A DNA stretch of 43,408 nucleotides from Actinobacteria bacterium 21-73-9. Lineage in GTDB: Bacteria > Actinomycetota > Acidimicrobiia > Acidimicrobiales > RAAP-2. Location of the stretch: NCBI GenBank assembly GCA_002255565.1, contig NCBE01000004.1, positions 1 to 43,408 on the forward strand, written 5' to 3'. A program made the position numbers and the translations under genes. The notes beneath the pieces were generated by a model. That model saw only the letters and a program-made list of their open reading frames with translations. It had not been told where the DNA came from and searched no databases. Each line of letters starts with the position of its first letter. The stretch's first letter is position 1. Shown one piece after another: positions 420-43,408 of the stretch.

Positions 420-1814
420 ATGAAGGAAGCCTGCGGCGTCGTCGCCATCGTGGCCCCGGGCCGGGCGGCCGCCCCCCTGTGCTACGACGCCCTCTACGCC
501 CTGCAGCACCGCGGCCAGGAGTCGGCCGGGATGGCCTGCTTCAGCGACCACCAGATCACCGTCGTGAAGGACAACGGTCTGGTCAGCCACGTCTTCACCG
601 AGTCGACGCTGCGCGCGCTGCCCGGGTCGATCGTCATCGGCCACACGCGCTACTCCACGTCGGGCTCGGCCAACTGGACGGCCGCCCAGCCGGTCTACCG
701 CTCGGCCGGCCCGTCGGGCTTCGCCCTGGCGCACAACGGCAACCTGACCAACACGGCCGCGCTCGCCGAGGGGGCCGGGGTGCTCGTCGCCTCGATGCTC
801 TCGGACTCGGACCTCGTGGCCGAACTCCTCGCGCGCGAGGTCGACGCCGGCGTGCCCCTCGACGAGGCGCTCGGGGTGGTGCTCGCCAAGGCCGAGGGCG
901 CCTTCTCGCTGGTGGTGCTGGAGGCCGGACGGGTGCACGCGGTGCGCGACCCCTACGGCTTCCGGCCGCTCTGCCTGGGCCGGCTCGGCCCGGCCGAGGC
1001 GCCCGAGGGGTGGGTCGTCGCCTCCGAGACGCCGGCCCTCGACACCGTGGGGGCGACCCTCGTGCGCGAGGTGCGCCCGGGCGAGATGGTCACCCTCGAC
1101 GAGACCGGCGTCGAGGCCCGCCAGCTCCTCGAGCCCGCCGCCGGGCCCGAGCGGCTCTGCGTCTTTGAGTTCGTCTACTTCGCCCGGCCCGACGCCTACC
1201 TCCTCGGCCACGAGGTCCACACGGCCCGCCGGCGCATGGGCGAGCGCCTGGCCCACCAGGCCCCGGTCGAGGCCGACCTCGTGATGGGCGTGCCCGACTC
1301 GGGCGTGCCGGCGGCCGAGGGCTACGCCGCGGCCTCGGGGACGCCCTTCGCCCACGGGCTGGTGAAGAACCGCTACATCGGACGCACCTTCATCGCCCCG
1401 GGCCAGGACGCCCGCGCCGAGGGCGTGCGACGCAAGCTCAACCCGCTGCGCGAGACGATCCGCGGCCAGCGTCTCGTGGTCGTGGACGACTCGATCGTGC
1501 GCGGCACGACGACCCGCGCCCTCGTGCGCATGCTGCGCGAGGCCGGCGCGCGCGAGGTCCACCTGCGGATCAGCTCGCCGCCCTTCTTATGGCCCTGCTA
1601 CTACGGCATCGACACCCCGACGCGCGAGGAGCTGCTCGCGAGCCACCACACGGTCCCCGAGATGAACGACTACCTCGGCTCGGACAGCCTCGAGTTCATC
1701 ACCCTTTCGAACCTGCGCGCCGCCATCGGGGTGGCCGAGGAGTGCTGTGACGCGTGTCTGACCGGTCGCTACCCCGCGCCGATCCCGGTGACCCTGGGCG
1801 TGGGGCGGGCGTGA
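420..1814 (+). CDS. purF: Amidophosphoribosyltransferase
   Basis: N-terminal EACGV nucleophile Cys, LQHRGQESAG, GHTRYST, AHNGNL, PRPP loop VVVDDSIVRGTT, and Fe-S cysteines PCYYGID and CDAC. Confidence 0.97.
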   Translation: MKEACGVVAIVAPGRAAAPLCYDALYALQHRGQESAGMACFSDHQITVVKDNGLVSHVFTESTLRALPGSIVIGHTRYSTSGSANWTAAQPVYRSAGPSGFALAHNGNLTNTAALAEGAGVLVASMLSDSDLVAELLAREVDAGVPLDEALGVVLAKAEGAFSLVVLEAGRVHAVRDPYGFRPLCLGRLGPAEAPEGWVVASETPALDTVGATLVREVRPGEMVTLDETGVEARQLLEPAAGPERLCVFEFVYFARPDAYLLGHEVHTARRRMGERLAHQAPVEADLVMGVPDSGVPAAEGYAAASGTPFAHGLVKNRYIGRTFIAPGQDARAEGVRRKLNPLRETIRGQRLVVVDDSIVRGTTTRALVRMLREAGAREVHLRISSPPFLWPCYYGIDTPTREELLASHHTVPEMNDYLGSDSLEFITLSNLRAAIGVAEECCDACLTGRYPAPIPVTLGVGRA

Positions 1815-2866
1815 GCCGGCTCCTCGAGGTCGAGGGACGGCGGACCTACGCCGAGGCGGGCGTCTCGATCGCGGCCGGCGAGGCGGCCGTCGCGCGCTTC
1901 GCGCCCTCGGCCGCCGCCGCCAGCCGTCCCGAGGTCCTCGAGGGGCTCGGGGGCTTCGCCGGGCTCTTCGCCCTGCCCGCGCGCTACCGCGACCCGGTGC
2001 TCGTCGCCTCGGCCGACGGGGTCGGCACCAAGCTCGAGGTGGCCCGGCTCGCCGGGCGCTTCGACACGGTGGGGATCGACCTCGTCGCCATGCTCGTGGA
2101 CGACCTCGTGTGCACCGGCGCCGAGCCGCTCTTCGTGCTCGACTACGTGGCCGTCGGCGCGCTCGACCCGGCCCGGGTCGCCGAGGTCGTCGCCGGCGTC
2201 GCCGAGGGCTGCCGGCGCGCCGGCGCGGCGCTGCTCGGCGGCGAGACGGCCGAGCACGGCGGGGTCATGAAGCCCGACGAGATCGACCTCGCGGGCTTCG
2301 CCGTCGGCGCGGTCGAGCGCGACGGGCGTCTAGGGAGCGACCGCGTCGCCGAGGGCGACGCCCTCGTCGGTCTCCACTCGCCCAACCTGCGCTCCAACGG
2401 CTTCACCCTCGTGCGCGAGGTCCTGCTCGCCGACCCGGGCGCGCTCGAGCGCCCGGCCTACGCGGGGTGTGCCGAGACCCTCGCCGAGGTGCTGCTCTCA
2501 CCCTCGGTGATCTACGCCCCCGGGGTGCTCGCGCTGCGCGAGAGCCTCGGCCCGGCGCTGCACGCCGCCGCCCACGTCACCGGCGGGGGCATCGTCGGCA
2601 ACGTCGCGCGCCTCCTCCCCGAAGGCCGGCGCGCGCTGATCGACCTGGCGGCCTTCCCGACCCCGGAGGTCTTCTTCGAGATCCAGCGGCGCGGCCCGGT
2701 GGGTCCCGACGAGATGGTGCGGGTCTTCAACTGCGGGCTCGGGATGGTCCTCGCGCTCGAGCCGGCCCACGCCCCGGCGGCCGTCGCCCGCCTCGGCGCC
2801 GCGGGCTACCCCGCGTCGGTCGTCGGCGAGGTCGTGGCCGGCGAGCGGGGGGTGACCCTGCGATGA
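1811..2866 (+). CDS. purM: Phosphoribosylformylglycinamidine cyclo-ligase (AIR synthetase)
   Basis: YAEAGV, GGFAGLF, DGVGTKL, GIDLVAM, GAEPLF, GGETAE, HVTGGG, FNCGLGM. GTG start overlaps the purF stop (GTGA). Confidence 0.96.
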   Translation: MSRLLEVEGRRTYAEAGVSIAAGEAAVARFAPSAAAASRPEVLEGLGGFAGLFALPARYRDPVLVASADGVGTKLEVARLAGRFDTVGIDLVAMLVDDLVCTGAEPLFVLDYVAVGALDPARVAEVVAGVAEGCRRAGAALLGGETAEHGGVMKPDEIDLAGFAVGAVERDGRLGSDRVAEGDALVGLHSPNLRSNGFTLVREVLLADPGALERPAYAGCAETLAEVLLSPSVIYAPGVLALRESLGPALHAAAHVTGGGIVGNVARLLPEGRRALIDLAAFPTPEVFFEIQRRGPVGPDEMVRVFNCGLGMVLALEPAHAPAAVARLGAAGYPASVVGEVVAGERGVTLR

Positions 2867-3417
2867 GCGACGCCCGCGAGCGCGTGCTCGAGCACCTCCT
2901 CGCGCACTCGGTGCGCCGGGGTGACTTCGTCTTGAAGTCGGGTCGGCGCTCGAGCTGGTTCATCGACTCCAAGCAGACGATCTGCGCGGGCGAGTCGATG
3001 ATGGACGTGGCCCTCTTGGTGCTCGGCACGATGCCCGCCGAGGCGACGGCGATCGGCGGACTCACGATGGGCGCCGACGGGCTCAGCTTCATCACCGCGG
3101 GCGTGGCCGCGACGACGGGGCGCGAGCTGCGGGCCTTCAGCGTGCGCAAGGAGGTGAAGGACCACGGCGCGGGCGGCAGGATCGCCGGCTGCCTCGCGCC
3201 CGGCGACCTCGTGGTCGTGACCGAGGACACCGTCTCGCGGGGCACGAGCCTGCTCGAGGCGGCCCGCGTCGTGCGCGACGCCGGCGCCGAGGTCGTGATG
3301 GTCATCGCCCTCGTCGACCGCGGCGGCACGGCCGCGGCGATGTGCGCGGCCGAGGGGATCGAGTTCCGCGCGCTCTTTGGCGCCCCGGACCTCGGCTTCG
3401 ACTACGAGGGCGCCTAG
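2863..3417 (+). CDS. pyrE: Orotate phosphoribosyltransferase
   Basis: GDFVLKSGRRSSWFID, GGLTMGAD, VRKEVKDHG, VVTEDTVSRGTS, LVDR. ATGA overlap with purM. Confidence 0.92.
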   Translation: MSDARERVLEHLLAHSVRRGDFVLKSGRRSSWFIDSKQTICAGESMMDVALLVLGTMPAEATAIGGLTMGADGLSFITAGVAATTGRELRAFSVRKEVKDHGAGGRIAGCLAPGDLVVVTEDTVSRGTSLLEAARVVRDAGAEVVMVIALVDRGGTAAAMCAAEGIEFRALFGAPDLGFDYEGA

Positions 3418-4463
3418 CCGGCCAGGACGTCGAGCACCCGGGCCCGCCACGCGGCGAGCGCCGGGTAGGCCTCCTCGGGGGTGTGGCCGAAGCGCAGCAC
3501 CAGCGCGTCGAGCGCCGGGGCGACGACGATCATCTGGCCCTCGTAGCCGCTCGCGAAGTACGAGCCGTGGGCGTCGCCGGTCACCCACCAGTGCCAGGCG
3601 TAGTACTCGCCGGACTCCTCGTCGCGCCCGGTCGGGCGCTGGGCGGTGGCCACCCACTCCTCGCTGAGGACGCGCCGGCCGTCGACCACGCCGCCGCGCA
3701 GGTAGAGCAGGCCGAAGCGCGCGAAGTCGAGCGCCGTCGCGTGCAGAAAGCTCGAGGCGACAAAGACCCCACGCCCGTCGAACTCAGCCCGCGCCGCCAT
3801 CCTCAGGGGGCTGAGGAGGCGCTCGTCGATGAAGCGTTGGTAGGCCTCGCCGCGGCCGACCTGGTCGGCGACGATCCGGCTCACGATGTTGGTGGTGCCC
3901 GAGGAGTAGCGGAAGGCCGCGCCCGGCGCCTCGACGAGCGCCTTGGCGGCCGCGAAGCCCGCGGTGTCGGCCTTGGCCTCGCCGAAGAGCATCTCGACCA
4001 CGTCGCTCGCGCCGTCGAGCTCGTAGACCTCGCTGAAGGCGAGGCCGCTGCGCATCGCGAGCAGGTCCGCGAGGGTGATCGCGTGGCGCGGGTCCGCGGG
4101 GTCGGCCCACTCGGGCACCGGGGCGCGCGCCGCGGGGTCGAGGCGGCCCTCGTCGACGAGGATCCCCACGAGGGCGTGCAGGACCGACTTGGCCATCGAC
4201 CAGCTGAGGAGCTCGGTCGTCGGGCCGACCTCCTCGGCCGGCCGATCGAAGTGGGGCCGCAGCCCCCCGTAGCGCTCGGCGACGACGGCCCCCCCGCGCA
4301 CGACCACCACCGCGTTGGTCTCGCCGTAGCGGGGGTCCTCGAAGGCCTCGTCGAGCAGGGCCCCCAGCCCCGCGGGCGCCTGCGCCCGGGGCCAGGCCTC
4401 CCGCGGCCAGGGGGCGAGAGAGGAAACGACGGCCGGGGTCACGTCGGGCAGGTCCGAGGGCAC
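3414..4463 (-). CDS. Serine hydrolase, beta-lactamase class C-like family
   Basis: SWSMAKS (SxxK), LLAMRSG, FRYSSG, DFARFGLLYL, ASGYEGQ. Start moved to GTG 4463 (4478 is an alternative) because the track start lies inside tRNA-Phe. Confidence 0.88.
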   Translation of the reverse strand: MPSDLPDVTPAVVSSLAPWPREAWPRAQAPAGLGALLDEAFEDPRYGETNAVVVVRGGAVVAERYGGLRPHFDRPAEEVGPTTELLSWSMAKSVLHALVGILVDEGRLDPAARAPVPEWADPADPRHAITLADLLAMRSGLAFSEVYELDGASDVVEMLFGEAKADTAGFAAAKALVEAPGAAFRYSSGTTNIVSRIVADQVGRGEAYQRFIDERLLSPLRMAARAEFDGRGVFVASSFLHATALDFARFGLLYLRGGVVDGRRVLSEEWVATAQRPTGRDEESGEYYAWHWWVTGDAHGSYFASGYEGQMIVVAPALDALVLRFGHTPEEAYPALAAWRARVLDVLAG

Positions 4464-4483
4464 GGGCCATTGTGGCACCGTCG

Positions 4484-4556
4484 TGGTCGAGACCGGCGTC
4501 GATCCGGTGACCTCACGCTTTTCAGGCGTGCGCTCTACCAACTGAGCTACTCGACC
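4484..4556 (-). tRNA. tRNA-Phe(GAA)
   Basis: GGTCGAGTAGCTCAGTTGGTAGAGCGCACGCCTGAAAAGCGTGAGGTCACCGGATCGACGCCGGTCTCGACCA folds as a cloverleaf; anticodon arm CACGC-CTGAAAA-GCGTG. Confidence 0.96.
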
Positions 4557-4577
4557 TCGTCACCCGAGGGTGCCGAG

Positions 4578-4652
4578 CGGACCTGACGGGATTTGAACCC
4601 GCGACCTCCGCCTTGACAGGGCGGCGTGCACTCCGAGCTGCACCACAGGTCC
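4578..4652 (-). tRNA. tRNA-Asp(GTC)
   Basis: GGACCTGTGGTGCAGCTCGGAGTGCACGCCGCCCTGTCAAGGCGGAGGTCGCGGGTTCAAATCCCGTCAGGTCCG; anticodon arm CCGCC-CTGTCAA-GGCGG; T-loop TTCAAAT. Confidence 0.96.
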
Positions 4653-5108: not shown

Positions 5109-5315
5109 GGGCGAAGCGTAGCCACGCCCCGGGCTCGGAGAGACGTTACGAACATCGCGGAACGTCGCGCGAGGGGCCTCGCGTCCCGAGTGCGCCGGGC
5201 CGTCGTCCGCCCGGCGACCCGGGTGAAATACCCCGAAACGCCCAACCGCTTCACTACTGTCGATTGCGTCGGCCGCTCGACGTTCCCCACCTCCGCGCGG
5301 CCGGGAAGGAGTCCC

Positions 5316-8243
5316 GTGGCGAGCACGCTAGGCCGGCGCTACCAGTACGGCGCGAGCTTTGTCGACCAGGCGTCGGGCATCCGCTTCGAGGGACACCATC
5401 CCTTCGAGCGCCCCGACCTGTGGCGGATCTACCTGAACGAGGCCGAGGGCGCCTACAAGGGCTACGGGGTCGAGGAGTCGCTCAGCCGCCGCGACCTCGA
5501 GGACGGCGTCGGGGTGCCCCTCTTCTTCCTCGGCTTCAACGCCGAGGGCGAGGCCGTCGCCGGGGTGAGGTTCCACGGGCCCCTCGAGAGCCGCCACCAG
5601 GCGGCGATCGTCGACGAGATGGGCGGGTCGAGCGAGATCGAGGAGATCGGCTCGCTGATCGACGCCGAGGTGCGCCTGGGCGCGATCGAGGTCAAGGGCG
5701 CCTGGTCCAAGGGCGAGCAGGTGGTGGGCACCCGGCTCGTCCAGACGATCTCGCGCTCGGTCACCCACGCGATGACCTGGCTCGGGGCCGAGTTCGCCGT
5801 CGCGGCCATCCGCCAGGAGCTCCTGGCGATCGGGGTGCCCACGGGGGCCCGCCAGATCGGCGCCGAGGCGGTGCCCTACCCCGACGAGCGCTACCGCACG
5901 ATCGCGGTGTGCTGGCGCCGGGCCCGCACGCCCGAGCTCTCGACGCCCGAGCACCAGCTGGCCCTTCGCCGCGAGGCCGAGGAGCTCGCCCGCGGCGCCG
6001 GCGCCGGCGCCCTCTCGCCGATCGACCCGGCCCACACCCGCACCCACTCGTGGCGGCCCCTCGTGATGGACGGGGCGAGCCGGACCGAGCGCGAGGTCCT
6101 GCGCATCTTGCGGGCCGACCCGTCGCTGCAGATCATCGACCGCTACGCCGAGCAGCGCGACCAGCTGGGCGACCTCGCGCCGCGCCCGCCGGGCTCGATC
6201 CTCGATGAGGGCGGCCGGTGGGTCTACTACCCGTGGCGCCGCGCCGTCGTGCGCCTGCTCGCGCCGCGCGCCTTCAACACCTTGCGCCTGGACCGCAACC
6301 ACAACAAGATCACCGCCGAGGAGCAGGGGCGTCTGCGCCGGCTCCGCGTCGGGGTGATCGGGGTGAGCGCCGGTCACTCGATCGCCCACGGGCTGGCCAT
6401 GGAGGGCGTCGTGGGCGAGCTGCGCCTGGCCGACTTTGACACCATCGAGCTCTCCAACCTCAACCGGATCCCGGTGAGCGTCATCGACCTGGGCGTCAAC
6501 AAGGCCGTGGTCGCCGCGCGACGCATCGCCGAGGTCGACCCCTACCTCAGCGTACGGGTCGAGACCGAGGGCATCACCCGCGAGAACCTGCCCGCGTTCC
6601 TCGACGACCTCGACCTGGTCGTCGAGGAGTGCGACTCGCTCGACGTCAAGTTCCTGGTGCGCGAGCTCGCCCGTGAGCGGGGCATCCCGGTGGTGATGGA
6701 GACGAGCGACCGCGGCGTGCTCGACGTGGAGCGCTTCGACCTCGAGCCGGACCGCCCGCTCTTCCACGGGCTGATCGGCGACATGGACTACGCGACGCTC
6801 GCGGACCTCGCGCTGCCCGAGAAGTCGGCCATCGTGCTGCGGATGCTCGGTGCCCGCGAGGTCTCGAGCCGCAGCGCCGCCTCCTTCGTCGAGCTCGGCC
6901 AGACGGTGACCGGCTGGCCCCAGCTCGCGAGCGAGGTCACCCTCGGCGCGGTGTCGGTCGCCGCGGCGGTGCGTCGACTCGGGCTGAAGGGCGACCTGCC
7001 CTCGGGCCGCGTGCGCGTCGACATCGAGGAGATCCTCGACGACCTGGCCCCGGTCGAGCTCGCCGAGGCGCCCGACCTCGAGACGCCCCCGCCCGAGGAG
7101 CCCCCGCTCGAGAGCGACGACCCGGTCACGCTCATCGTCGATGCCGCGCGGCGCGCGCCCTCGGGCGGCAACATCCAGCCGTGGCGCTTCGAGGCCGACG
7201 AGGACGAGGTGCGCTTCTATCTCACCCCGGAGCGCACGACGCGCATGGACGTCGAGCACCGCGCGGGCTACCTGGCTCTCGGTGCGGCGCTCATGAACGC
7301 CCGGATCGCCGCGGCCTCGGTCGGCCGGCTCGGCGCCGTGCGACTCTTCCCCTCGGGGGCGAGGTCCAACCACGTGGCCACCCTGGAGCTGGGCCGCGAG
7401 CGCGACCACCAGCTCGCGCCGCTACTCGGCGCGGTCGCCACCCGCACGGCGAACCGCCGTCCGGGCTCGCCCCAGGCGATCGAGCCCGAAACGCTGGCCG
7501 ACCTCGCCCGGGGGGTCGAGCGCGAGGGGGCCCGCCTGCGGATCGTGACCGAGCGCGACCCGCTCACCGAGGTCGGCCGGATCCTCGCCGAGTCGGACCG
7601 GCTGCGCTTCTTGCTGCCCGAGCTCCACGGCGAGATGGTGGGCGAGCTGCGCTGGCCCGGCCTCGACTCGCTCGAAGAGGGCCTCGACGTGCGGACCCTC
7701 GAGATGGACGCGATGTCGACCGCCCTGCTCGAGGTGCTGAGCCGGCCCGAGGTGCTCGACCACGTGGCCCGCTGGCGCGGGGGGCGCAACCTCGGCCTGC
7801 GGACCGCGGCGATCATCGCCTCGAGCTCGGCGGTGGCCGCGATCACGGTGCCCCGACCCGACCCCGCGTGGTTCGTGCGTGGGGGCGGGGCCCTCGAGCG
7901 GTTCTGGCTCGAGACCGACGTGGCCGGCCTGGCCGTCCAGCCGGTGTCGCCCGTCTTCCTCTTCGCCCAGGACGAGGAGGAGCTGCTCGACCTGGCGGGG
8001 GAGCGCCACGTCGAGGAGATGGCCAACCTGCACTGGCAGTTCCGCCGGTTCTGGGAGCTCGAGGAGACCGAGACCCTGGCCATGGTGGTGCGGGTCTCGC
8101 ACGCCCCGCGCCCCAGCGTGCGCAGCGTGCGGATCCCCCTCGCCGAGGTCCTCAGCCGCGGGGAGACCCCGGCGAGCAGCCCCTCGACGCGGGCCTTCGA
8201 CGCCCCCCCGTTCGACGCGTACTCGGCGACCTGGAAGAACTAG
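5316..8243 (+). CDS. Tri-domain fusion: Rv1356c-like putative N-acyltransferase + ThiF/MoeY (Rv1355c-like) adenylase + nitroreductase-fold domain
   Basis: GTG start after AGGAG. N-terminal PDLWRIYL..A..AY..YGVE, LFF, G.R.HGPL, IEVKGAW and YPDERYRT match my recollection of M. tuberculosis Rv1356c. Middle WVYYPW, RLDRNHNKIT, GVSAGHSIA, ADFDTIELSNLNR, EECDSLD, WPQLASEV is Rv1355c/ThiF-type. C-terminal RAPSGGNIQPWRF and RTANRR is nitroreductase-like. Confidence 0.88.
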   Translation: MASTLGRRYQYGASFVDQASGIRFEGHHPFERPDLWRIYLNEAEGAYKGYGVEESLSRRDLEDGVGVPLFFLGFNAEGEAVAGVRFHGPLESRHQAAIVDEMGGSSEIEEIGSLIDAEVRLGAIEVKGAWSKGEQVVGTRLVQTISRSVTHAMTWLGAEFAVAAIRQELLAIGVPTGARQIGAEAVPYPDERYRTIAVCWRRARTPELSTPEHQLALRREAEELARGAGAGALSPIDPAHTRTHSWRPLVMDGASRTEREVLRILRADPSLQIIDRYAEQRDQLGDLAPRPPGSILDEGGRWVYYPWRRAVVRLLAPRAFNTLRLDRNHNKITAEEQGRLRRLRVGVIGVSAGHSIAHGLAMEGVVGELRLADFDTIELSNLNRIPVSVIDLGVNKAVVAARRIAEVDPYLSVRVETEGITRENLPAFLDDLDLVVEECDSLDVKFLVRELARERGIPVVMETSDRGVLDVERFDLEPDRPLFHGLIGDMDYATLADLALPEKSAIVLRMLGAREVSSRSAASFVELGQTVTGWPQLASEVTLGAVSVAAAVRRLGLKGDLPSGRVRVDIEEILDDLAPVELAEAPDLETPPPEEPPLESDDPVTLIVDAARRAPSGGNIQPWRFEADEDEVRFYLTPERTTRMDVEHRAGYLALGAALMNARIAAASVGRLGAVRLFPSGARSNHVATLELGRERDHQLAPLLGAVATRTANRRPGSPQAIEPETLADLARGVEREGARLRIVTERDPLTEVGRILAESDRLRFLLPELHGEMVGELRWPGLDSLEEGLDVRTLEMDAMSTALLEVLSRPEVLDHVARWRGGRNLGLRTAAIIASSSAVAAITVPRPDPAWFVRGGGALERFWLETDVAGLAVQPVSPVFLFAQDEEELLDLAGERHVEEMANLHWQFRRFWELEETETLAMVVRVSHAPRPSVRSVRIPLAEVLSRGETPASSPSTRAFDAPPFDAYSATWKN

Positions 8244-8245
8244 CC

Positions 8246-8331
8246 GCCCGGACCGGGTCGGGCCAAATCACAACACAATCACAACGGACGGGTCCCTCGG
8301 CCACAATTCGGGCCCGTCGCCCGGTCCGGGC
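8246..8331. promoter_or_regulatory. 12-bp inverted repeat enclosing tandem AATCACAAC direct repeats, upstream of the GGDEF-EAL gene
   Basis: GCCCGGACCGGG (8246-8257) is the exact reverse complement of 8320-8331. AATCACAAC occurs at 8266-8274 and 8277-8285 (11-bp period). Confidence 0.5.
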
Positions 8332-8440
8332 CCGCTCGCCCCTTGTGGGGACGGGTGGGGCCCAATTACTGTGGGGAGCGGACTTCGTGTGCTGAGACTC
8401 ACCCGACATCCGCTGACCGATCCGAACGTGGGGCACGGGT

Positions 8441-10620
8441 ATGACGACCGACATCTCGACTAGCGCTGAGGCCACCGCGGCCGAGACGCGTCTCGTGGTC
8501 GAGACGCTCCTGCGCGTGATCTCGGGCACCGAGATCGTGGCCGTCGTGACCTGCGAGGGTGCGGCGGTGCCCGGCATCACGATGGAGCCGCTCGTCGGCA
8601 AGACCGCGGGCGACGCCTTCGCCCGGATCGTCGAGCGGGTCCGCACCGAGCTCGAGGGCGACCCCAGCGGGGTCGGCTCGTTCTCCCTCGCCGTCTCGAG
8701 GGTCGAGTGGGGCGTCCTGGTCGACCCGATCCTGGTCGACGAGCGGGTCGTGGGGGCCCTCGTGATCGCGCGCCACGGTCGCAGCTGGTCTCGGCGCGAG
8801 AGCTCGCTCAGTCGGGCCTTCGCGCGGATGCTGAGCCGGGTGGCGGTCCTCGCCGGGCGCGAGAGCAGTCTGCTGCGCCAGCGGAGCCTCGACACGCTCG
8901 TGCGCCAGGTGGCCGAGATCCTCATGGCCGGCAACGCCGCCAACCTCCAGCAGACCCTCGACACCACGGTGCGCCTCCTCGGCGAGTACCTCGAGAGCGA
9001 CGCCGCCTTCTTGCGCCGCAACGATCACGAGCGCGGCCTCTCGATCCTGGTCTCGGAGTGGCCGCGGCGCGAGAACGTGCCCGACCCGGACCCCCTCGGC
9101 GAGGTTCCCTTCGACGTCGACCCGGTGTTCGCCGCGATGAAGGACCTGAAGACGCCCTACATGCCCGAGCAGTCCGAGACGCCCGAGGAGTACCTCGAGC
9201 GCGTGGAGAAGGGCTCGGGCGTGTCCGAGGTGGGTGGGGGCGCGGTGCCGCTGCTGATCGGCGACACCACCTGGGGCATCCTCGGCTTCTTGCACTTCGG
9301 CCTGCACCGGTGGGTGCCCGAGGAGATCAACGCCCTCCAGGCCGTCGCCTCGATGCTGGCCCAGCTCCAGGCCCGGCTCGACGCCGAGGCCCGCACCCTC
9401 TACAGCGCGAACCACGACTACCTCACGGGCCTGCCCAACCGGCCGGCCCTCGTCGCCGAGCTCGAGCGACGCCTGTCCACGGGGCGCTCGACGGCGGTCA
9501 TGATCATCGACCTCGACCGGTTCAAGATCATGAACGACTACCTGGGCCACGCCAACGGCGACGAGCTGCTGCGGGTGATCGGCGACCGGCTTCGCACGAG
9601 CGTGCGCCAGAACGACTTCGTCGCCCGACTGGGCGGCGACGAGTTCGTCTTCCTGCTCGACAAGTGCCGCAGCGAGCTCGACGCCGTCGCCTCGGCCTAC
9701 CGCATCCTTGAGGTGATCGGCCGCCCGGTCGAGATCATGGGCCAGGTGATGAACCACACGGCCTCGATCGGCGTGGCCCTGCCGAGCGTCGAGTCGTTGA
9801 CCGCCCTGGAGCTGATCTCGCGGGCCGACGTGGCGATGTTCGAGGCGAAGTCGATGGGCCGCGGCCACGTGGTGGTCTTCGACGGCACCCTCGCGAAGAA
9901 GGTCGACGACCGCAGCCAGCTCGAGATCCAGCTGCGCCAGGCGATCGAGTTCGACGGGCTGCGCCTGCACTTCCAGCCCGAGGTCGACCTCAACACGGGC
10001 AAGCTGCTCGCCGTGGAGTCCCTGGTGCGCTGGGAGCACCCGACGAGGGGTCTGCTCACCGCCTCGGAGTTCATCAAGGTGGCCGAGGAGACGGGCCTCG
10101 TGACCAAGATGGGTCGCTGGGTCTTCGCCGAGGCGTGTCGTCAGCTGGGCGTGTGGCGCCACCGCCACCCCGAGCTCGACTTCACGGTGCGGGTCAACAT
10201 GTCCCCGGCCGACTTCAAGATGGGCGACCTGGTGGGCTTCGTCGCGGCGTGAAGATCGCGCTCGACGACTTCGGGACGGGCTTCGCCTCGATGACCGAGC
10301 TCAAGAACCTGCCAATCGAGATCTTGAAGCTCGACATGACCTTCGTGCGCGGGATCGTGCGCGACAACTTCGACAAGGCGATCGTCGAGTCGATCATCCA
10401 CCTCTCCAAGGCCCTCAACCTCGAGGTCGTCGCCGAGGGGATCGAGTCGAGCACGATCGTCGACAAGCTCCGCGAGCTGGGCTGCCACCGCGGCCAGGGC
10501 TACCTCATCTCCATGCCGATGGCGGCGAGCGAGCTCGAGACCCTGCTCGAGGCCGGCTCGGTGCTCGAGTCTCTCCTGCGCAGCGGTGACGTCGACACGT
10601 TCGACGCGTCCGATGCTTGA
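8441..10620 (+). pseudogene. GAF-GGDEF-EAL diguanylate cyclase/phosphodiesterase (Rv1354c-like), frameshifted by an internal deletion in the EAL domain
   Basis: HDYLTGLPNR, IDLDRFK, GHANGD, RQND-x5-GGDEF, QPEV, ESLVRW, VNMSP. The frame stops at 10250-10252. GVKIALDDFGTG...LKLD...VVAEGIE...GQGYL resumes in another frame to 10620, and the intervening IEITE segment is absent. Confidence 0.85.
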
Positions 10621-11443
10621 CGCCGACCCTCGCGCGAACGCCCCCGAGGTCGACCTCGACGAGGTCGACCGCCACGGCTACGAGCCGTGGGTGTTCCGGA
10701 CCCTGCTCGCCGAGCTCGCGGTGGGCGAGCTGGGCATCAACTTCGTCTACACCCTGCTCGAGCGCCTGGCCGAGCGCCACGAGCTCGACGACGCCGTGGT
10801 CGTGCTCTCGGACGACGCCTTCGGCACCCAGACCTTCCGCCTGGGCGCGCGCGTCGAGCCGGTCGACATGATGACCCAGCTGGGGACCGACCCGGGCCTC
10901 TACTGCACGCCCGACGTCGTGTCCGAGTCGGAGGCCGAGGCGGTGCGCGCGGCCTGCCAGCTGGCGCTCTCGCTGCAGCTGGCCCGCTTCCGGGCCGGCC
11001 AGGACCCGCTCACCAACATCGCGAACCGGCGCAACTTCGACCAGTCCCTCTCGGTCGCCTCGGGCCGGGCCGCGCGCTACGGCTGGCCCTTCACCCTGGT
11101 GCTCATCGACCTCGACGGCTTCAAGCTGATCAACGACGAGAGCGGTCACGAGTTCGGCGACTACCTCCTGCGCCAGTTCGGCTTCGCCCTGCGCCGCTCG
11201 ATGCGCTCGGGCGACACGCCGGCGCGCGTCGGCGGGGACGAGTTCGCCGTCATCTTGAACAACGCCGAGGGCAACGAGGCGCTCGGCTTCACCGACCGCC
11301 TGCGCCAGCAGCTCAAGGCCGGCGGGGTCCCGATCGACTTCACGGTGGGCACCTCCTCGGCGCCCCGGGAGTCGACCGACCCGGGCGAGCTGTTCCGGCT
11401 GGCCGACGCGCGGCTCTACCAGAGGAAGGGCGGGCGGGACTGA
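10613..11443 (+). CDS. Diguanylate cyclase (GGDEF) with divergent N-terminal sensor region
   Basis: DPLTNIANRR, IDLDGFKLIND, GH, RSGD-x5-GGDEF (I-site present), ADARLY. Start overlaps the upstream EAL stop. Confidence 0.92.
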   Translation: MLDADPRANAPEVDLDEVDRHGYEPWVFRTLLAELAVGELGINFVYTLLERLAERHELDDAVVVLSDDAFGTQTFRLGARVEPVDMMTQLGTDPGLYCTPDVVSESEAEAVRAACQLALSLQLARFRAGQDPLTNIANRRNFDQSLSVASGRAARYGWPFTLVLIDLDGFKLINDESGHEFGDYLLRQFGFALRRSMRSGDTPARVGGDEFAVILNNAEGNEALGFTDRLRQQLKAGGVPIDFTVGTSSAPRESTDPGELFRLADARLYQRKGGRD

Positions 11444-40827: not shown

Positions 40828-40875
40828 GTGAGCACCCCCAACGGTGAGCACCCCCAACATGTGAGCACCCCCAAC
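40828..40875. repeat. Three tandem copies of GTGAGCACCCCCAAC (tRNA-Glu 3' end)
   Basis: Exact 15-mers at 40828-40842, 40844-40858 and 40861-40875. Confidence 0.92.
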
Positions 40876-40911
40876 GGGATTCGAACCCGTGCTGCCACCT
40901 TGAAAGGGTGG
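40866..40911 (-). pseudogene. tRNA-Glu(TTC) 3' fragment (att site)
   Basis: CCACC-CTTTCAA-GGTGG anticodon arm, ACGGG-TTCGAAT-CCCGT T-arm and TGGGGGT acceptor 3' strand. No D-arm or complementary acceptor 5' strand upstream. Confidence 0.88.
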
Positions 40912-40980
40912 GTGGCCATCGACGAATGCCTTGAGATCAATCCTCATCAAAAGCACGATTGATTGGTAACGCTTGCGCGA

Positions 40981-41009
40981 GGGCACTTGAAGGGCGCTCC
41001 ATGGGCGCT
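40981..41009. repeat. Three GGGCRCT direct repeats at 11-bp period (possible integrase arm-type sites)
   Basis: GGGCACT 40981, GGGCGCT 40992 and GGGCGCT 41003, about 70 bp inside the att core. Confidence 0.5.
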
Positions 41010-41299
41010 TCCGTAGAGCGGCGGTGATTGGGCTCGGGAGGTTAGACCGTCTATATCCGTCTCATGACGACTGGTGGGTTCGACGTGGAGCTGGCGAGTC
41101 GCCTTCGACCCCCTTCGCAATCGAGCGCCCTCATCTCATAGTTCCTGTACTGTGCCAATTCCTCCGTGACCTGTCGTTATTAGGGGAGGTTGGGGCCACG
41201 TCGGGGCTGGCGCTGGAGCCAATTGGTGCTGGCTCAGAACGAACTATCTCGAGTGTTGGATACGACATTGTTCAGCTCAAGCACGTCAAGTCAGATTTC

Positions 41300-41602
41300 G
41301 TGGTGTGGACGGTGGTCGCATCGTCTGGGAACTGGAGGAAGCTAAGTCGCCCGGAACTAGATAAATACGGAATAGATCCCCATACAACAAAGTCGGACAT
41401 CTACGGAAAAGGCAACAATAGTCAGTACGACATATACATCAACAAGGACAACGGTGAGATTGCAACTGGCCCGAAGCGACTTACCCCAGACTCGGAGATG
41501 CAGCCGATAGGGTGGAAGGTCAGCGGTGATCAAGTGGATGAAGGTATTCCATTGAACATTCCACTGGAGGACGGAGGAGGTGAGTTCTTCTTCGATGGCT
41601 AG
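41300..41602 (+). CDS. Orphan polymorphic toxin C-terminal domain, Ntox33-like (start uncertain; probably a fragment)
   Basis: RKLS..EL.KYGIDPH..K..IYGKGNNSQYDIY.NK.NGEI...PK.......PIG resembles my recollection of Ntox33 (GID.H..K...S.YD.Y....G.I...PK). No delivery domain upstream. Confidence 0.65.
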   Translation: MVWTVVASSGNWRKLSRPELDKYGIDPHTTKSDIYGKGNNSQYDIYINKDNGEIATGPKRLTPDSEMQPIGWKVSGDQVDEGIPLNIPLEDGGGEFFFDG

Positions 41603-42020
41603 CAACGAGTCGATGCAGGAAGAGGATGTCGCCAAATGCCGCGTTTGGCTGACGGTCATCGAGGCAGGAGTCAATGGCTCATCCTTGAGCAAGATGCTGA
41701 AAGTAAGTGGCGCGCGAGTTCGTAGAGAGGGACACCCGGCAAAGTATGCGCCGTATAGCAGTAGTGGCAAAAGGCTTCTTCGGCATAGTTCGTGGTCTTA
41801 CAGAGTTCCGATGCCTTCTACGGCGCAGTTGGAACGGCAATTGGAGTATCTCATCCGGACCGTGGACGGGAAAGTACTTGGGGGGATTCTGGCGACCAGA
41901 CCTTCAGCGATTCCGGTGCTCGAGATTGAAGTCCAGAATGAAACTGGCTTGAACTTCCCGGCGGAAGTTGTGGACTGGCTCGCGTCTTTTGGAGGCTCAA
42001 TTGATGTCGATATCTATTGA
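41595..42020 (+). CDS. Putative immunity protein, DUF4279-like
   Basis: Overlaps the toxin stop; S.W.Y, LE.QL..L and terminal G..FPAEVVDWLASFGGSIDVDIY pattern. Confidence 0.7.
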   Translation: MASNESMQEEDVAKCRVWLTVIEAGVNGSSLSKMLKVSGARVRREGHPAKYAPYSSSGKRLLRHSSWSYRVPMPSTAQLERQLEYLIRTVDGKVLGGILATRPSAIPVLEIEVQNETGLNFPAEVVDWLASFGGSIDVDIY

Positions 42021-42059
42021 TTCCTGAATACGCGAGGAGTTCAACTGACCCATCCTCAA

Positions 42060-42537
42060 GCTTTGAAGGACGCATCCACGCTTGATACAACGCGCGGGCC
42101 CGCCTTGGGCACGTGCGGTGGTGGGGTCTGCCCCCACTCTTCCTGACAAACTGTCAACAAAACGTGCAGCAGTCCCCTTCGACAGTCGAGCTCGATCGCG
42201 AAGAAGATGTGCGCGTCCTTCAAGAACTCTTCCGCTCGGCGAAAGTCCCCCCACTCCCTCTCAAGTTACTTCTGGTGTTTGCGCTCGTCGCCCGTGAGCC
42301 TGGGACCAAGTCCACCATCAATCAGGGTCTATCCGGCCAAGTAACGAAGGGTCTCAGGTGCCACGCCCAACTTGCTCGACACCGACGTGAATGTCGGCTA
42401 GCCGGACGAAAGCTCAGCAAGGTGTTCGAAGACCTTCCGCACCGCCCGCTCAGGAACCTGTGGTGGGTATCTACGGATTTCTGCCATGGGCTGATCCTCT
42501 CAATGGAATTGTTCGTCAGTAAACCCGGGGTGGTTCA
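42060..42537 (-). mobile_element. Degenerate IS3-family (IS6110/IS51-group-like) element remnant
   Basis: Terminal TGAACCACCCCGG at 42537-42525. OrfA from ATG 42487 reads MAEIRRYPPQVPERAVRKV...KLGVAPETLR...IDGG...(shift)RAEEFLKDAHIFFAIELD, with three in-frame stops. Left boundary approximate. Confidence 0.85.
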
Positions 42538-42934
42538 GCATCACTACCCGCCTGCTTCCACCTTCGGTCTTAGTGCAGGCGAAACGTTTCGAATGACTAG
42601 CAATTCTTCGTCGAGAGTCGTTACTTATTCGTTCGATGTTGTCAATGATTCAGACCGTGTTGCGTACGTTCGCGCTGCGGGCCGCAGCGGAGGGGACATG
42701 ACTGTAATCAAGACGGGCTCTTACGACACGCTGCATGTGATTGCTCCGGGGAGGTCTCGCCCGGTCACCATCGCGTTCCGCATAGGAGCGTGTAATCATC
42801 GGATTCGGGGCGACTGGCCAATCCCGATTGATGTTGGTCGGTCTCGCTCTGCGACGACTCGAGTGAGTGTCAGCCCGCCGTTGGCTGGGAGGCTTCAGTG
42901 GCAAGAATACGTGGTTGATCTGATATGCAAGTGA
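42538..42934 (+). pseudogene. 3' remnant of an unknown beta-rich protein gene, apparently cut by the IS
   Basis: Open frame directly abutting the IS end (...YSFDVVN...IAPG.SRPVTIAFRIGAC...W....V..IC). An internal ATG at about 42593 could allow a short CDS. Confidence 0.45.
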
Positions 42935-43044
42935 CAGGTCTGACGTTCCGCACTTCTCGGGTGTGATATTCGCCCCACGTCAGTTAGAAGTTTTGACCTG
43001 CCCCAGGGTGATTCAGTGATCCAGAGTATTCGAAGTTCAGCCCC

Positions 43045-43362
43045 TCAGGGTTTCACCGATACCGGCTCGTCGACATCGTCCATCAGGCGGTACGTCGCAT
43101 CACCCACCACGGCGTTGATCTGGAGTTGACCACCGAGTGCGTGGACGTATCTCGCAATCGACGAAAGTTGAAGGTCCTCGCTTCGTTCAAGTTGCGACAC
43201 GTTCGGTTGAGACGTGCCAAGGATTTCTGCCAGGTCGACCTGGCTCTTGCCAAGTTGTTCGCGAAGGAGAGCCAGACGCAAACTCAACCGTTCTCGTGAG
43301 ACGGTCTTCTCATCAACATTGAGGCGCTTGCGCACCTCGCGCCACGGGGTCGTCTTGGGCAT
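43045..43362 (-). CDS. XRE-family HTH antitoxin (HigA-like)
   Basis: LREQLGKSQVDLAEILGTSQPNVSQLERSEDLQLSSIARYVHALGGQL; TGATG coupling to the upstream gene. Confidence 0.88.
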   Translation of the reverse strand: MPKTTPWREVRKRLNVDEKTVSRERLSLRLALLREQLGKSQVDLAEILGTSQPNVSQLERSEDLQLSSIARYVHALGGQLQINAVVGDATYRLMDDVDEPVSVKP

Positions 43363-43408
43363 CAGATCAAGCCTTCCTTTCGGATCTCGTCGAGATATTC
43401 GTCGTACA
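43362..43408 (-). CDS. 3' end of a RelE/HigB (Gp49-like) toxin (partial)
   Basis: ...YDEYLDEIRKEGLI* is a typical C-terminus of this toxin group and is coupled to the antitoxin start. Only about 15 codons are visible. Confidence 0.65.
   Translation of the reverse strand, partial: YDEYLDEIRKEGLI

Follow-up and report, generated by a model that had tools for sequence, protein, structure and literature searches.

A single-chain candidate N-acyl oxazolone synthase with TrzA- and TrzS-like parts in an Acidimicrobiales genome

Contig NCBE01000004.1 of Actinobacteria bacterium 21-73-9 (order Acidimicrobiales, assembly GCA_002255565.1), analysed here as a window of 43,408 nucleotides, carries one gene in which a TrzA-type N-acyltransferase, a TrzS-type ThiF cyclase and an FDO (flavin-dependent oxidase) are fused. 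Taking the analyses together, we consider it likely (probability about 0.75) that this protein performs every step of N-acyl oxazolone synthesis by itself, probably with tryptophan as substrate. The predicted product would be a small lipid, a fatty-acyl oxazolone. The N-terminal domain would join an acyl-coenzyme A (acyl-CoA) and an amino acid into an N-acyl amino acid, the ThiF domain would close the ring through ATP-dependent adenylation, and the FDO would desaturate it with flavin mononucleotide (FMN) and O2 to give the oxazolone, all steps taking place on the same chain. A fused chain would set a 1:1:1 ratio of the three activities, and may curb the escape of N-acyl amino acid seen in split systems.

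The corresponding two-gene pathway was described in December 2025 (J Biol Chem, PMC12856293; statements on this and the other papers cited refer to the parts of them available to us). In that work Rv1356c is TrzA, which acylates L-tryptophan with acyl-CoA, and Rv1355c is TrzS, which carries out an ATP-dependent cyclisation followed by an O2-dependent desaturation to yield an N-acyl tryptazolone. The TrzAS pairs of M. tuberculosis, M. smegmatis and R. jostii RHA1 gave only tryptophan products in vivo, with different chain lengths. The initial annotation of the window, which called the function of Rv1356c and Rv1355c unclear, is outdated in this respect. Its view that the two proteins act in one pathway has been settled by experiment, and the fusion is therefore superfluous as the Rosetta-stone evidence that it was taken to be.

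RESULTS

One reading frame with three modules

Translation of 5316-8243 (plus strand) gave a single open frame of 975 amino acids with zero internal stops, confirming the uninterrupted three-module protein of the initial annotation, whose module coordinates were about right. The N-terminal domain occupies about residues 7-232, the match to NCBIfam NF005901 residues 241-947, Pfam ThiF residues 326-461 and the nitroreductase/Acg-like module about residues 604-946. The frame is open 5'-ward to 4617, and a longer start at 4626 was considered and ruled out. The open stretch 5' of the GTG codon is occupied by tRNA-Asp (4577-4652, minus strand) and a glyoxalase gene (minus strand), and homology in related loci begins at the same residue, mostly with a GTG after a purine-rich stretch; on these grounds the start was placed at 5316. 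A promoter and terminator scan around the gene revealed nothing informative. Its G+C content (72-75% per domain) matches that of the genome (72.5%) and thus gives no sign of recent acquisition. Contigs of the RNA run X20 are 91-96% like parts of the gene, but were not taken as proof of expression because the share of this run is small (0.07) and it may contain DNA.

The N-terminal domain has a predicted acyltransferase fold

No Pfam acyltransferase family, FeeM (PF21926) and the autoinducer synthases included, was matched among 25 and among 101 homologs of the N-terminal domain, and a weak GNAT match was obtained in one other fused homolog (P0436). Of two PDB sequence searches, one returned 0 matches and the other a single unrelated match (E 0.84), while the ESM Atlas returned unnamed clusters, one of them with PF00583 on 15% of its members. 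Folding from the single sequence was poor (predicted local distance difference test, pLDDT, 39.6), and a model built on 101 aligned homologs, both fused and stand-alone, reached a pLDDT of 93 and a predicted template modelling score (pTM) of 0.90. With this model, the top Foldseek match was the N-acyl amino acid synthase FeeM (2G0B, E 4.7e-7), followed by GNATs and the acyl-homoserine lactone (AHL) synthases EsaI, TofI and MesI. Using VIA-align (48,161 chains), FeeM and LasI tied for first place (Z 15.1; root-mean-square deviation 3.1 over 178 and 3.4 over 186 residues) and TofI came next; the closest structural neighbours were FeeM, LasI, TofI and RpaI. The predicted fold of TyzA has the same neighbours, FeeM and AHL synthases (PMC10404671). 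A FeeM/AHL-synthase-like acyltransferase fold, which the initial annotation had named as a finding that would favour its proposal, is supported by this predicted structure, FeeM standing first in both structure searches.

The domain is also homologous to the frame directly upstream of the Rv1355c-family frame of Nocardia farcinica (L043; 35%, pairwise E 3e-30), and 29% identical to a divergent neighbour of the Rv1355c-family gene in Rhodococcus qingshengii (L044). Ten stand-alone homologs were looked up, and the four clusters that carried a name belonged to Nocardia, Mycobacterium, Gordonia and Rhodococcus; these are the genera given for the TrzS subcluster (PMC12856293). The family-conserved residues R85, E101, E125, K127, W130, R147, P189, Y193 and T195 are all retained.

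The ThiF-FDO part belongs to the family of TrzS

Against NF005901 ('Rv1355c family protein', cut-off 476), residues 241-947 reach 890.5 bits over model positions 6-719 of 722, and their best PDB sequence match is the Acg nitroreductase 2YMV (residues 607-878, E 3.8e-9). Its identity to named members of the family from mycobacteria and rhodococci is 42-50%, comparable to the 44-52% (66% for one pair) that these show among themselves. Conservation was examined across 164 aligned ThiF-FDO rows, of which 107 are fused and 57 split. The ThiF residues D373-x-D375, N381-L-N-R384, K396 and E438-C439-D440 are kept in the fusion, as are A614-PSGGN-x-QPW623, R710/N713/R714, R764 and Q875 in the FDO.

In TrzS, D217 (the ThiF ATP-site Asp) and, in the FDO, R540 and Q651 are important (PMC12856293). 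All candidate counterparts are kept: D440 for D217 (also D443, D465 and D470), R764 for R540 (also R762) and Q875 for Q651. D440 and R764 are each invariant in 164/164 rows, and Q875 is retained in 133/164. The equivalents in a Mycolicibacterium homolog are D202, R527 and Q638, offset by 15, 13 and 13 from the published numbers, which suggests that D440, R764 and Q875, mapped by position in named relatives, are the likely counterparts of the three TrzS residues.

Comparison with known oxazolone pathways

TrzA and TrzS have the same three activities in the same order as those proposed for the fusion; the ThiF-FDO part falls in the Rv1355c family, the gene in the trzA position is homologous to its N-terminal domain, and genes for cyclic di-GMP (c-di-GMP) enzymes adjoin both systems. 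They differ in being two genes of mycolic-acid producers, whereas the fusion is one polypeptide of an Acidimicrobiales lineage, with an acyltransferase about 30% identical and a product that is predicted. OxzA and OxzB of Pseudoalteromonas rubra and other Proteobacteria (bioRxiv 10.1101/2020.06.11.147165) likewise pair an N-acyltransferase with a ThiF-nitroreductase didomain and make N-acyl oxazolones, a likeness taken from their published description; unlike the fusion they are two genes, with Tyr/Phe products, and OxzB sits in a different network subcluster from TrzS (PMC12856293). TyzA, TyzB and TyzC of M. tuberculosis perform the same chemistry, and the predicted fold of TyzA is near FeeM and the AHL synthases, but they are three separate proteins with a C12-tyrosine product and an order of cyclisation and desaturation that is not obligate (PMC10404671). 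FeeM and the LuxI-type AHL synthases (LasI, EsaI, TofI, RpaI, MesI) share the N-terminal fold at an identity of only 10-18%. Chemistry of the OxzAB/TyzACB kind, as suggested in the initial annotation, is most likely for the fusion.

Weighing the proposed pathway and its alternatives

A number of points weigh against a complete oxazolone synthase. All enzymatic steps are deduced from homologs, and residues 1-240 have no Pfam or NCBIfam match. The fusion departs from near-invariant residues at E42 (G) in the N-terminal domain and at H329 (R), D431 (G), L814 (M) and V817 (L) in the ThiF-FDO part, and the catalytic residues were mapped through named relatives rather than through the proteins characterised in M. 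smegmatis, R. jostii or M. tuberculosis. The acyltransferase domain is 26-32% identical to its Mycobacteriales homologs, which are 31-50% identical among themselves; as this lies below their own spread, the amino acid substrate may differ. Tryptophan is, from sequence kinship, the somewhat likelier substrate, and the chain length cannot be predicted. Finally, related ThiF plus nitroreductase clusters of Stieleria and Thalassotalea are associated with N-acyl dehydrotyrosines, no oxazolone being detected according to the available text (PMC12479983).

It is unlikely, on balance, that the three activities are as proposed and the relevant product is a ring-opened N-acyl 2,3-dehydro amino acid, the oxazolone being a transient intermediate, as the producers of stieleriacines and thalassotalic acids would suggest. 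The tryptazolone ring is acid-labile and hydrolyses even in 0.1% formic acid (PMC12856293). The metagenome that holds the stretch best (share 0.96) comes from mine drainage, its pH not being given. If this habitat is acidic, an exported oxazolone would be short-lived, which would favour an intracellular role or the ring-opened product. However, the cytoplasm is mostly near neutral, in acidophiles as well. Moreover, intact tryptazolones were found in cell pellets of wild-type M. smegmatis and R. jostii RHA1, where they were concentrated, whereas the N-acyl-Trp intermediates were in the supernatant (PMC12856293). The diffusible product imagined in the initial annotation is thus doubtful as far as the oxazolone is concerned, and it is the N-acyl-Trp intermediates that reach the medium.

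We regard it as very unlikely that the N-terminal domain is a catalytically inactive relic or a ligand binder and that the ThiF-FDO part draws on N-acyl amino acids from elsewhere. TrzS can indeed stand alone, since the mycobacterial plasmid loci L042 and L045 have trzS without an adjacent trzA. Nevertheless, the fusion keeps 29 of the 30 N-terminal positions that at least 80% of 101 homologs share, the domain is 56-95% identical across the genus, and it is the sole TrzA-like sequence in an 88%-complete genome.

A role in molybdopterin, thiamine or tRNA (ct6A) chemistry, which the labels 'MoeY' and 'molybdopterin/thiamine biosynthesis adenylyltransferase', automatic JGI names of many homologs and weak matches to structures of MoeB, ThiF and TcdA would imply, is highly improbable. 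The scores for these families are far under their cut-offs (MoeB 61.6 versus 266 bits, ThiF 66.9 versus 275, TcdA 33.1 versus 304), no sulfur-carrier family was found among the 30 frames scanned between 420 and 19,900, and the characterised family member, TrzS, is an oxazolone synthase (PMC12856293).

The fusion is genuine, and an assembly error or a read-through of two adjacent genes in a single strain, for which the fragmented assembly (194 contigs) and an apparent assembly gap in the next gene might speak, is refuted by genome counts and keeps next to no probability.

Distribution of the fusion

As to a stop or frameshift between the domains, an eventuality raised in the initial annotation, a contig of run X1, which may be the source sample, agrees with the window at every position of 5200-6213, a stretch that includes the first domain junction. 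Other genomes give independent support: among 24 of the same genus, the fusion is intact in one frame in 14, frameshifted in 2 and cut by contig ends in 1, the other 7 giving weak ThiF matches only. The 20 near loci are labelled Acidimicrobiales, Acidimicrobiaceae, Actinomycetes or Actinomycetota, and in one case 'Acidobacteria'; 19 carry the one-frame fusion (one of these cut at the contig start) and 1 is broken. When residues 1-235 were searched among proteins of 536-1707 amino acids, 360 clusters were obtained, and both parts are complete in 117 of the best 120. Cultured carriers are Leucothrix arctica, L. sargassi and Rugosimonospora acidiphila.

Of 150 genomes drawn from the genus, the one studied here among them, 106 match the Rv1355c family, 100 of them above the cut-off, and 97 of the 103 copies over the cut-off lie in frames of at least 959 amino acids, which leave room for three domains, the acyltransferase part being deduced from frame size. 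The fusion was found in 0/16 genomes from other families of the order. A class-wide draw gave 5/400 matching genomes, every one from this genus, and a phylum-wide draw 10/400, eight with a stand-alone acyltransferase in one family and two with a fused protein in another. In the class of this second, fused family, 3/143 genomes carry the Rv1355c family, all in frames of 987-1021 amino acids. With the ThiF-FDO part of Leucothrix arctica as query, the 120 matches listed (of 2025) comprised 70 full fusions, 3 partial ones and 47 ThiF-FDO proteins only, 23 of the 120 being the query itself and close relatives.

Fused and split forms

A FastTree phylogeny of the 164 ThiF-FDO rows requires eight fused/split changes, at least five of them forced by starred branches, in a tree that is unrooted and in which 'split' rows taken from databases may be incomplete or have a wrong start. 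The partial rows P0199, P0205, P0221 and P0375 were omitted beforehand, as were P0214, which equals a row from one of the loci, and P0412, which may duplicate another row in the set. Several independent fusions within the TrzS family are not established by this tree; because an approximately unbiased (AU) test on 25 chosen rows does not reject a single fused clade (p 0.37), repeated fusion is only suggested by these sequences. An earlier 53-row tree had given one change, which is explained by the narrow origin of its 11 split rows: four plasmids of Mycobacteriales and a single actinobacterial family. The fused clade of Leucothrix and Thiolinea (P0298, P0373-P0394) is well supported and sits on a long branch amid mostly actinobacterial rows, with unusual composition.

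The same architecture occurs in WP_011176612.1, a protein of 989 amino acids encoded on plasmid pDV of Nitratidesulfovibrio vulgaris Hildenborough (L083:5168-8137) and a full-length member of NCBIfam PRK14852 (NF011425). It resembles the fusion in being one chain with Pfam FeeM (E 4.9e-44), ThiF and nitroreductase in the same order. It differs in that the ThiF-FDO identity is ~26%, the TrzA profile misses its acyltransferase, and its neighbours are PEP-CTERM genes instead of c-di-GMP genes; conversely, the fusion scores 92.9 bits against PRK14852 (cut-off 1337). To judge by these sequences, the PRK14852 fusion is likely a separate, independent origin. N. vulgaris is an anaerobe, whereas characterised FDOs use O2. 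The protein is labelled hypothetical, and we found no characterisation of it.

Genomic neighbourhood

The features of the locus are listed in Table 1.

Table 1. Features at the fusion locus (window coordinates)
Feature	Position	Strand	Basis or remark
TrzA-like N-acyltransferase, TrzS-like ThiF cyclase and FDO in one 975-amino-acid gene (putative functions)	5316..8243	+	Frame, NF005901 score, same-genus loci
Ribosome-binding-site-like GGAAGGAG	5304..5311	+	4 nt ahead of GTG start; purine-rich stretch at same start in most relatives
Predicted N-acyltransferase domain, TrzA (Rv1356c)-type, residues 1-232, FeeM/AHL-synthase GNAT fold	5316..6011	+	Predicted structure, homologs, conservation
ThiF-like ATP-dependent cyclase (predicted), about residues 241-580	6036..7055	+	NCBIfam/Pfam matches, conserved residues
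Acg-like FMN-dependent oxidase (predicted FDO), about residues 604-946	7125..8153	+	NF005901, 2YMV match, conserved residues
GAF-GGDEF-EAL c-di-GMP enzyme, conserved neighbour	8441..10620	+	Split by 118-bp gap at 10244/10245
Second GGDEF protein with an intact GGDEF motif, third in the locus and conserved in the genus	10586..11443	+	Domain matches, related loci

The GAF-GGDEF-EAL gene lies downstream in 36/36 close loci with downstream DNA (L002-L017, L021-L040; broken in L039), all of which are kin and a few of which are one genome reached twice. It lies upstream of the fusion in two fused loci of the other family. Six of nine stand-alone loci of one other actinobacterial family read trzA-trzS-GGDEF/EAL, in agreement with the gene order published for trzAS (PMC12856293), and N. 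farcinica likewise has a GAF-GGDEF-EAL gene after trzA-trzS. Rv1354c we take to be a cyclase with the same GAF-GGDEF-EAL domain set as the downstream neighbour. The gene is absent from L042 and L045, the two plasmid loci that also have no trzA. In the genome studied here, 118 extra letters at 10244/10245 are found in contigs of X1 (otherwise identical) and X5, a contig of X20 has a gap equal to it in length, and the gene is whole in 7/7 nearest relatives (L021-L027); its frameshift is probably an assembly error and not the mark of a pseudogene.

The link to c-di-GMP signalling is drawn from gene order. As a tentative extension, to which we give a low probability, the fused synthase and the GAF-GGDEF-EAL protein could form a two-gene make-and-sense unit in which the GAF domain would read the oxazolone or its ring-opened form and c-di-GMP would shift. 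No LuxR was found among the 30 frames scanned.

The spacer 8267-8345, ahead of the GAF-GGDEF-EAL gene, holds four CACAA and one TTGTG, versus 0.18 expected from shuffles. Among 33 loci examined, three to five copies occur only in this locus and its seven nearest relatives, so that the repeats are not a genus-wide element; they are possibly a regulator site.

Other observations concern the surroundings and related plasmids. Upstream (420-4652) lie purF, purM and a pyrE-like gene, with tRNA-Phe and tRNA-Asp after them. From 40865 to 43408 the G+C content drops from about 72% to 54-56% right after tRNA-Glu (40865-40938, minus strand), like the edge of an integrated element. On the mycobacterial plasmids (L042:2145-7097, L045:2891-7133), the Rv1355c-family gene lies near genes for a cytochrome P450, a TetR protein and a dienelactone hydrolase. 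A Streptomyces plasmid (L078:4935-6709) encodes a ThiF-only protein, 40% like the ThiF domain of the fusion, with an overlapping GNAT gene behind it and no nitroreductase annotated nearby.

DISCUSSION

Oxazolone chemistry and the two-gene pathway are already known, and only the single-chain form appears to be undescribed. The literature searched contained no description of a three-domain oxazolone synthase or of the PRK14852 fusion, subscription journals lying mostly outside it and supplements possibly showing fusions, and searches for the words fused and fusion were negative in the available text of PMC12856293, bioRxiv 10.1101/2020.06.11.147165, PMC10404671, PMC12596934 and PMC12479983. The initial annotation knew of no described three-domain fusion but allowed that one might exist; the architecture itself had been catalogued, uncharacterised, as PRK14852.

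Since the chemistry is known, the fusion by itself is a modest finding, and its value is practical. With it, N-acyl oxazolone synthesis could be tested from a single gene, as could the channelling of an intermediate which, in split systems, escapes into the medium. Known so far from mycolic-acid bacteria, the TrzAS pathway would extend to the greater part of one Acidimicrobiales genus, to other actinobacteria and to marine Thiotrichaceae, in which current annotation conceals it as 'Rv1355c family' or 'molybdopterin/thiamine adenylyltransferase'.

The authors of PMC12856293 noted c-di-GMP genes next to trzAS and, in the part available, called the physiological role of the pathway unresolved; the tight linkage to a GAF-GGDEF-EAL gene makes this role testable, and in harmless hosts. 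If the make-and-sense unit is true, it would provide the first receptor and physiological role for bacterial oxazolones, in a module that most members of a large Acidimicrobiales genus have kept and that would have arisen again, independently, in Desulfovibrio-type bacteria.

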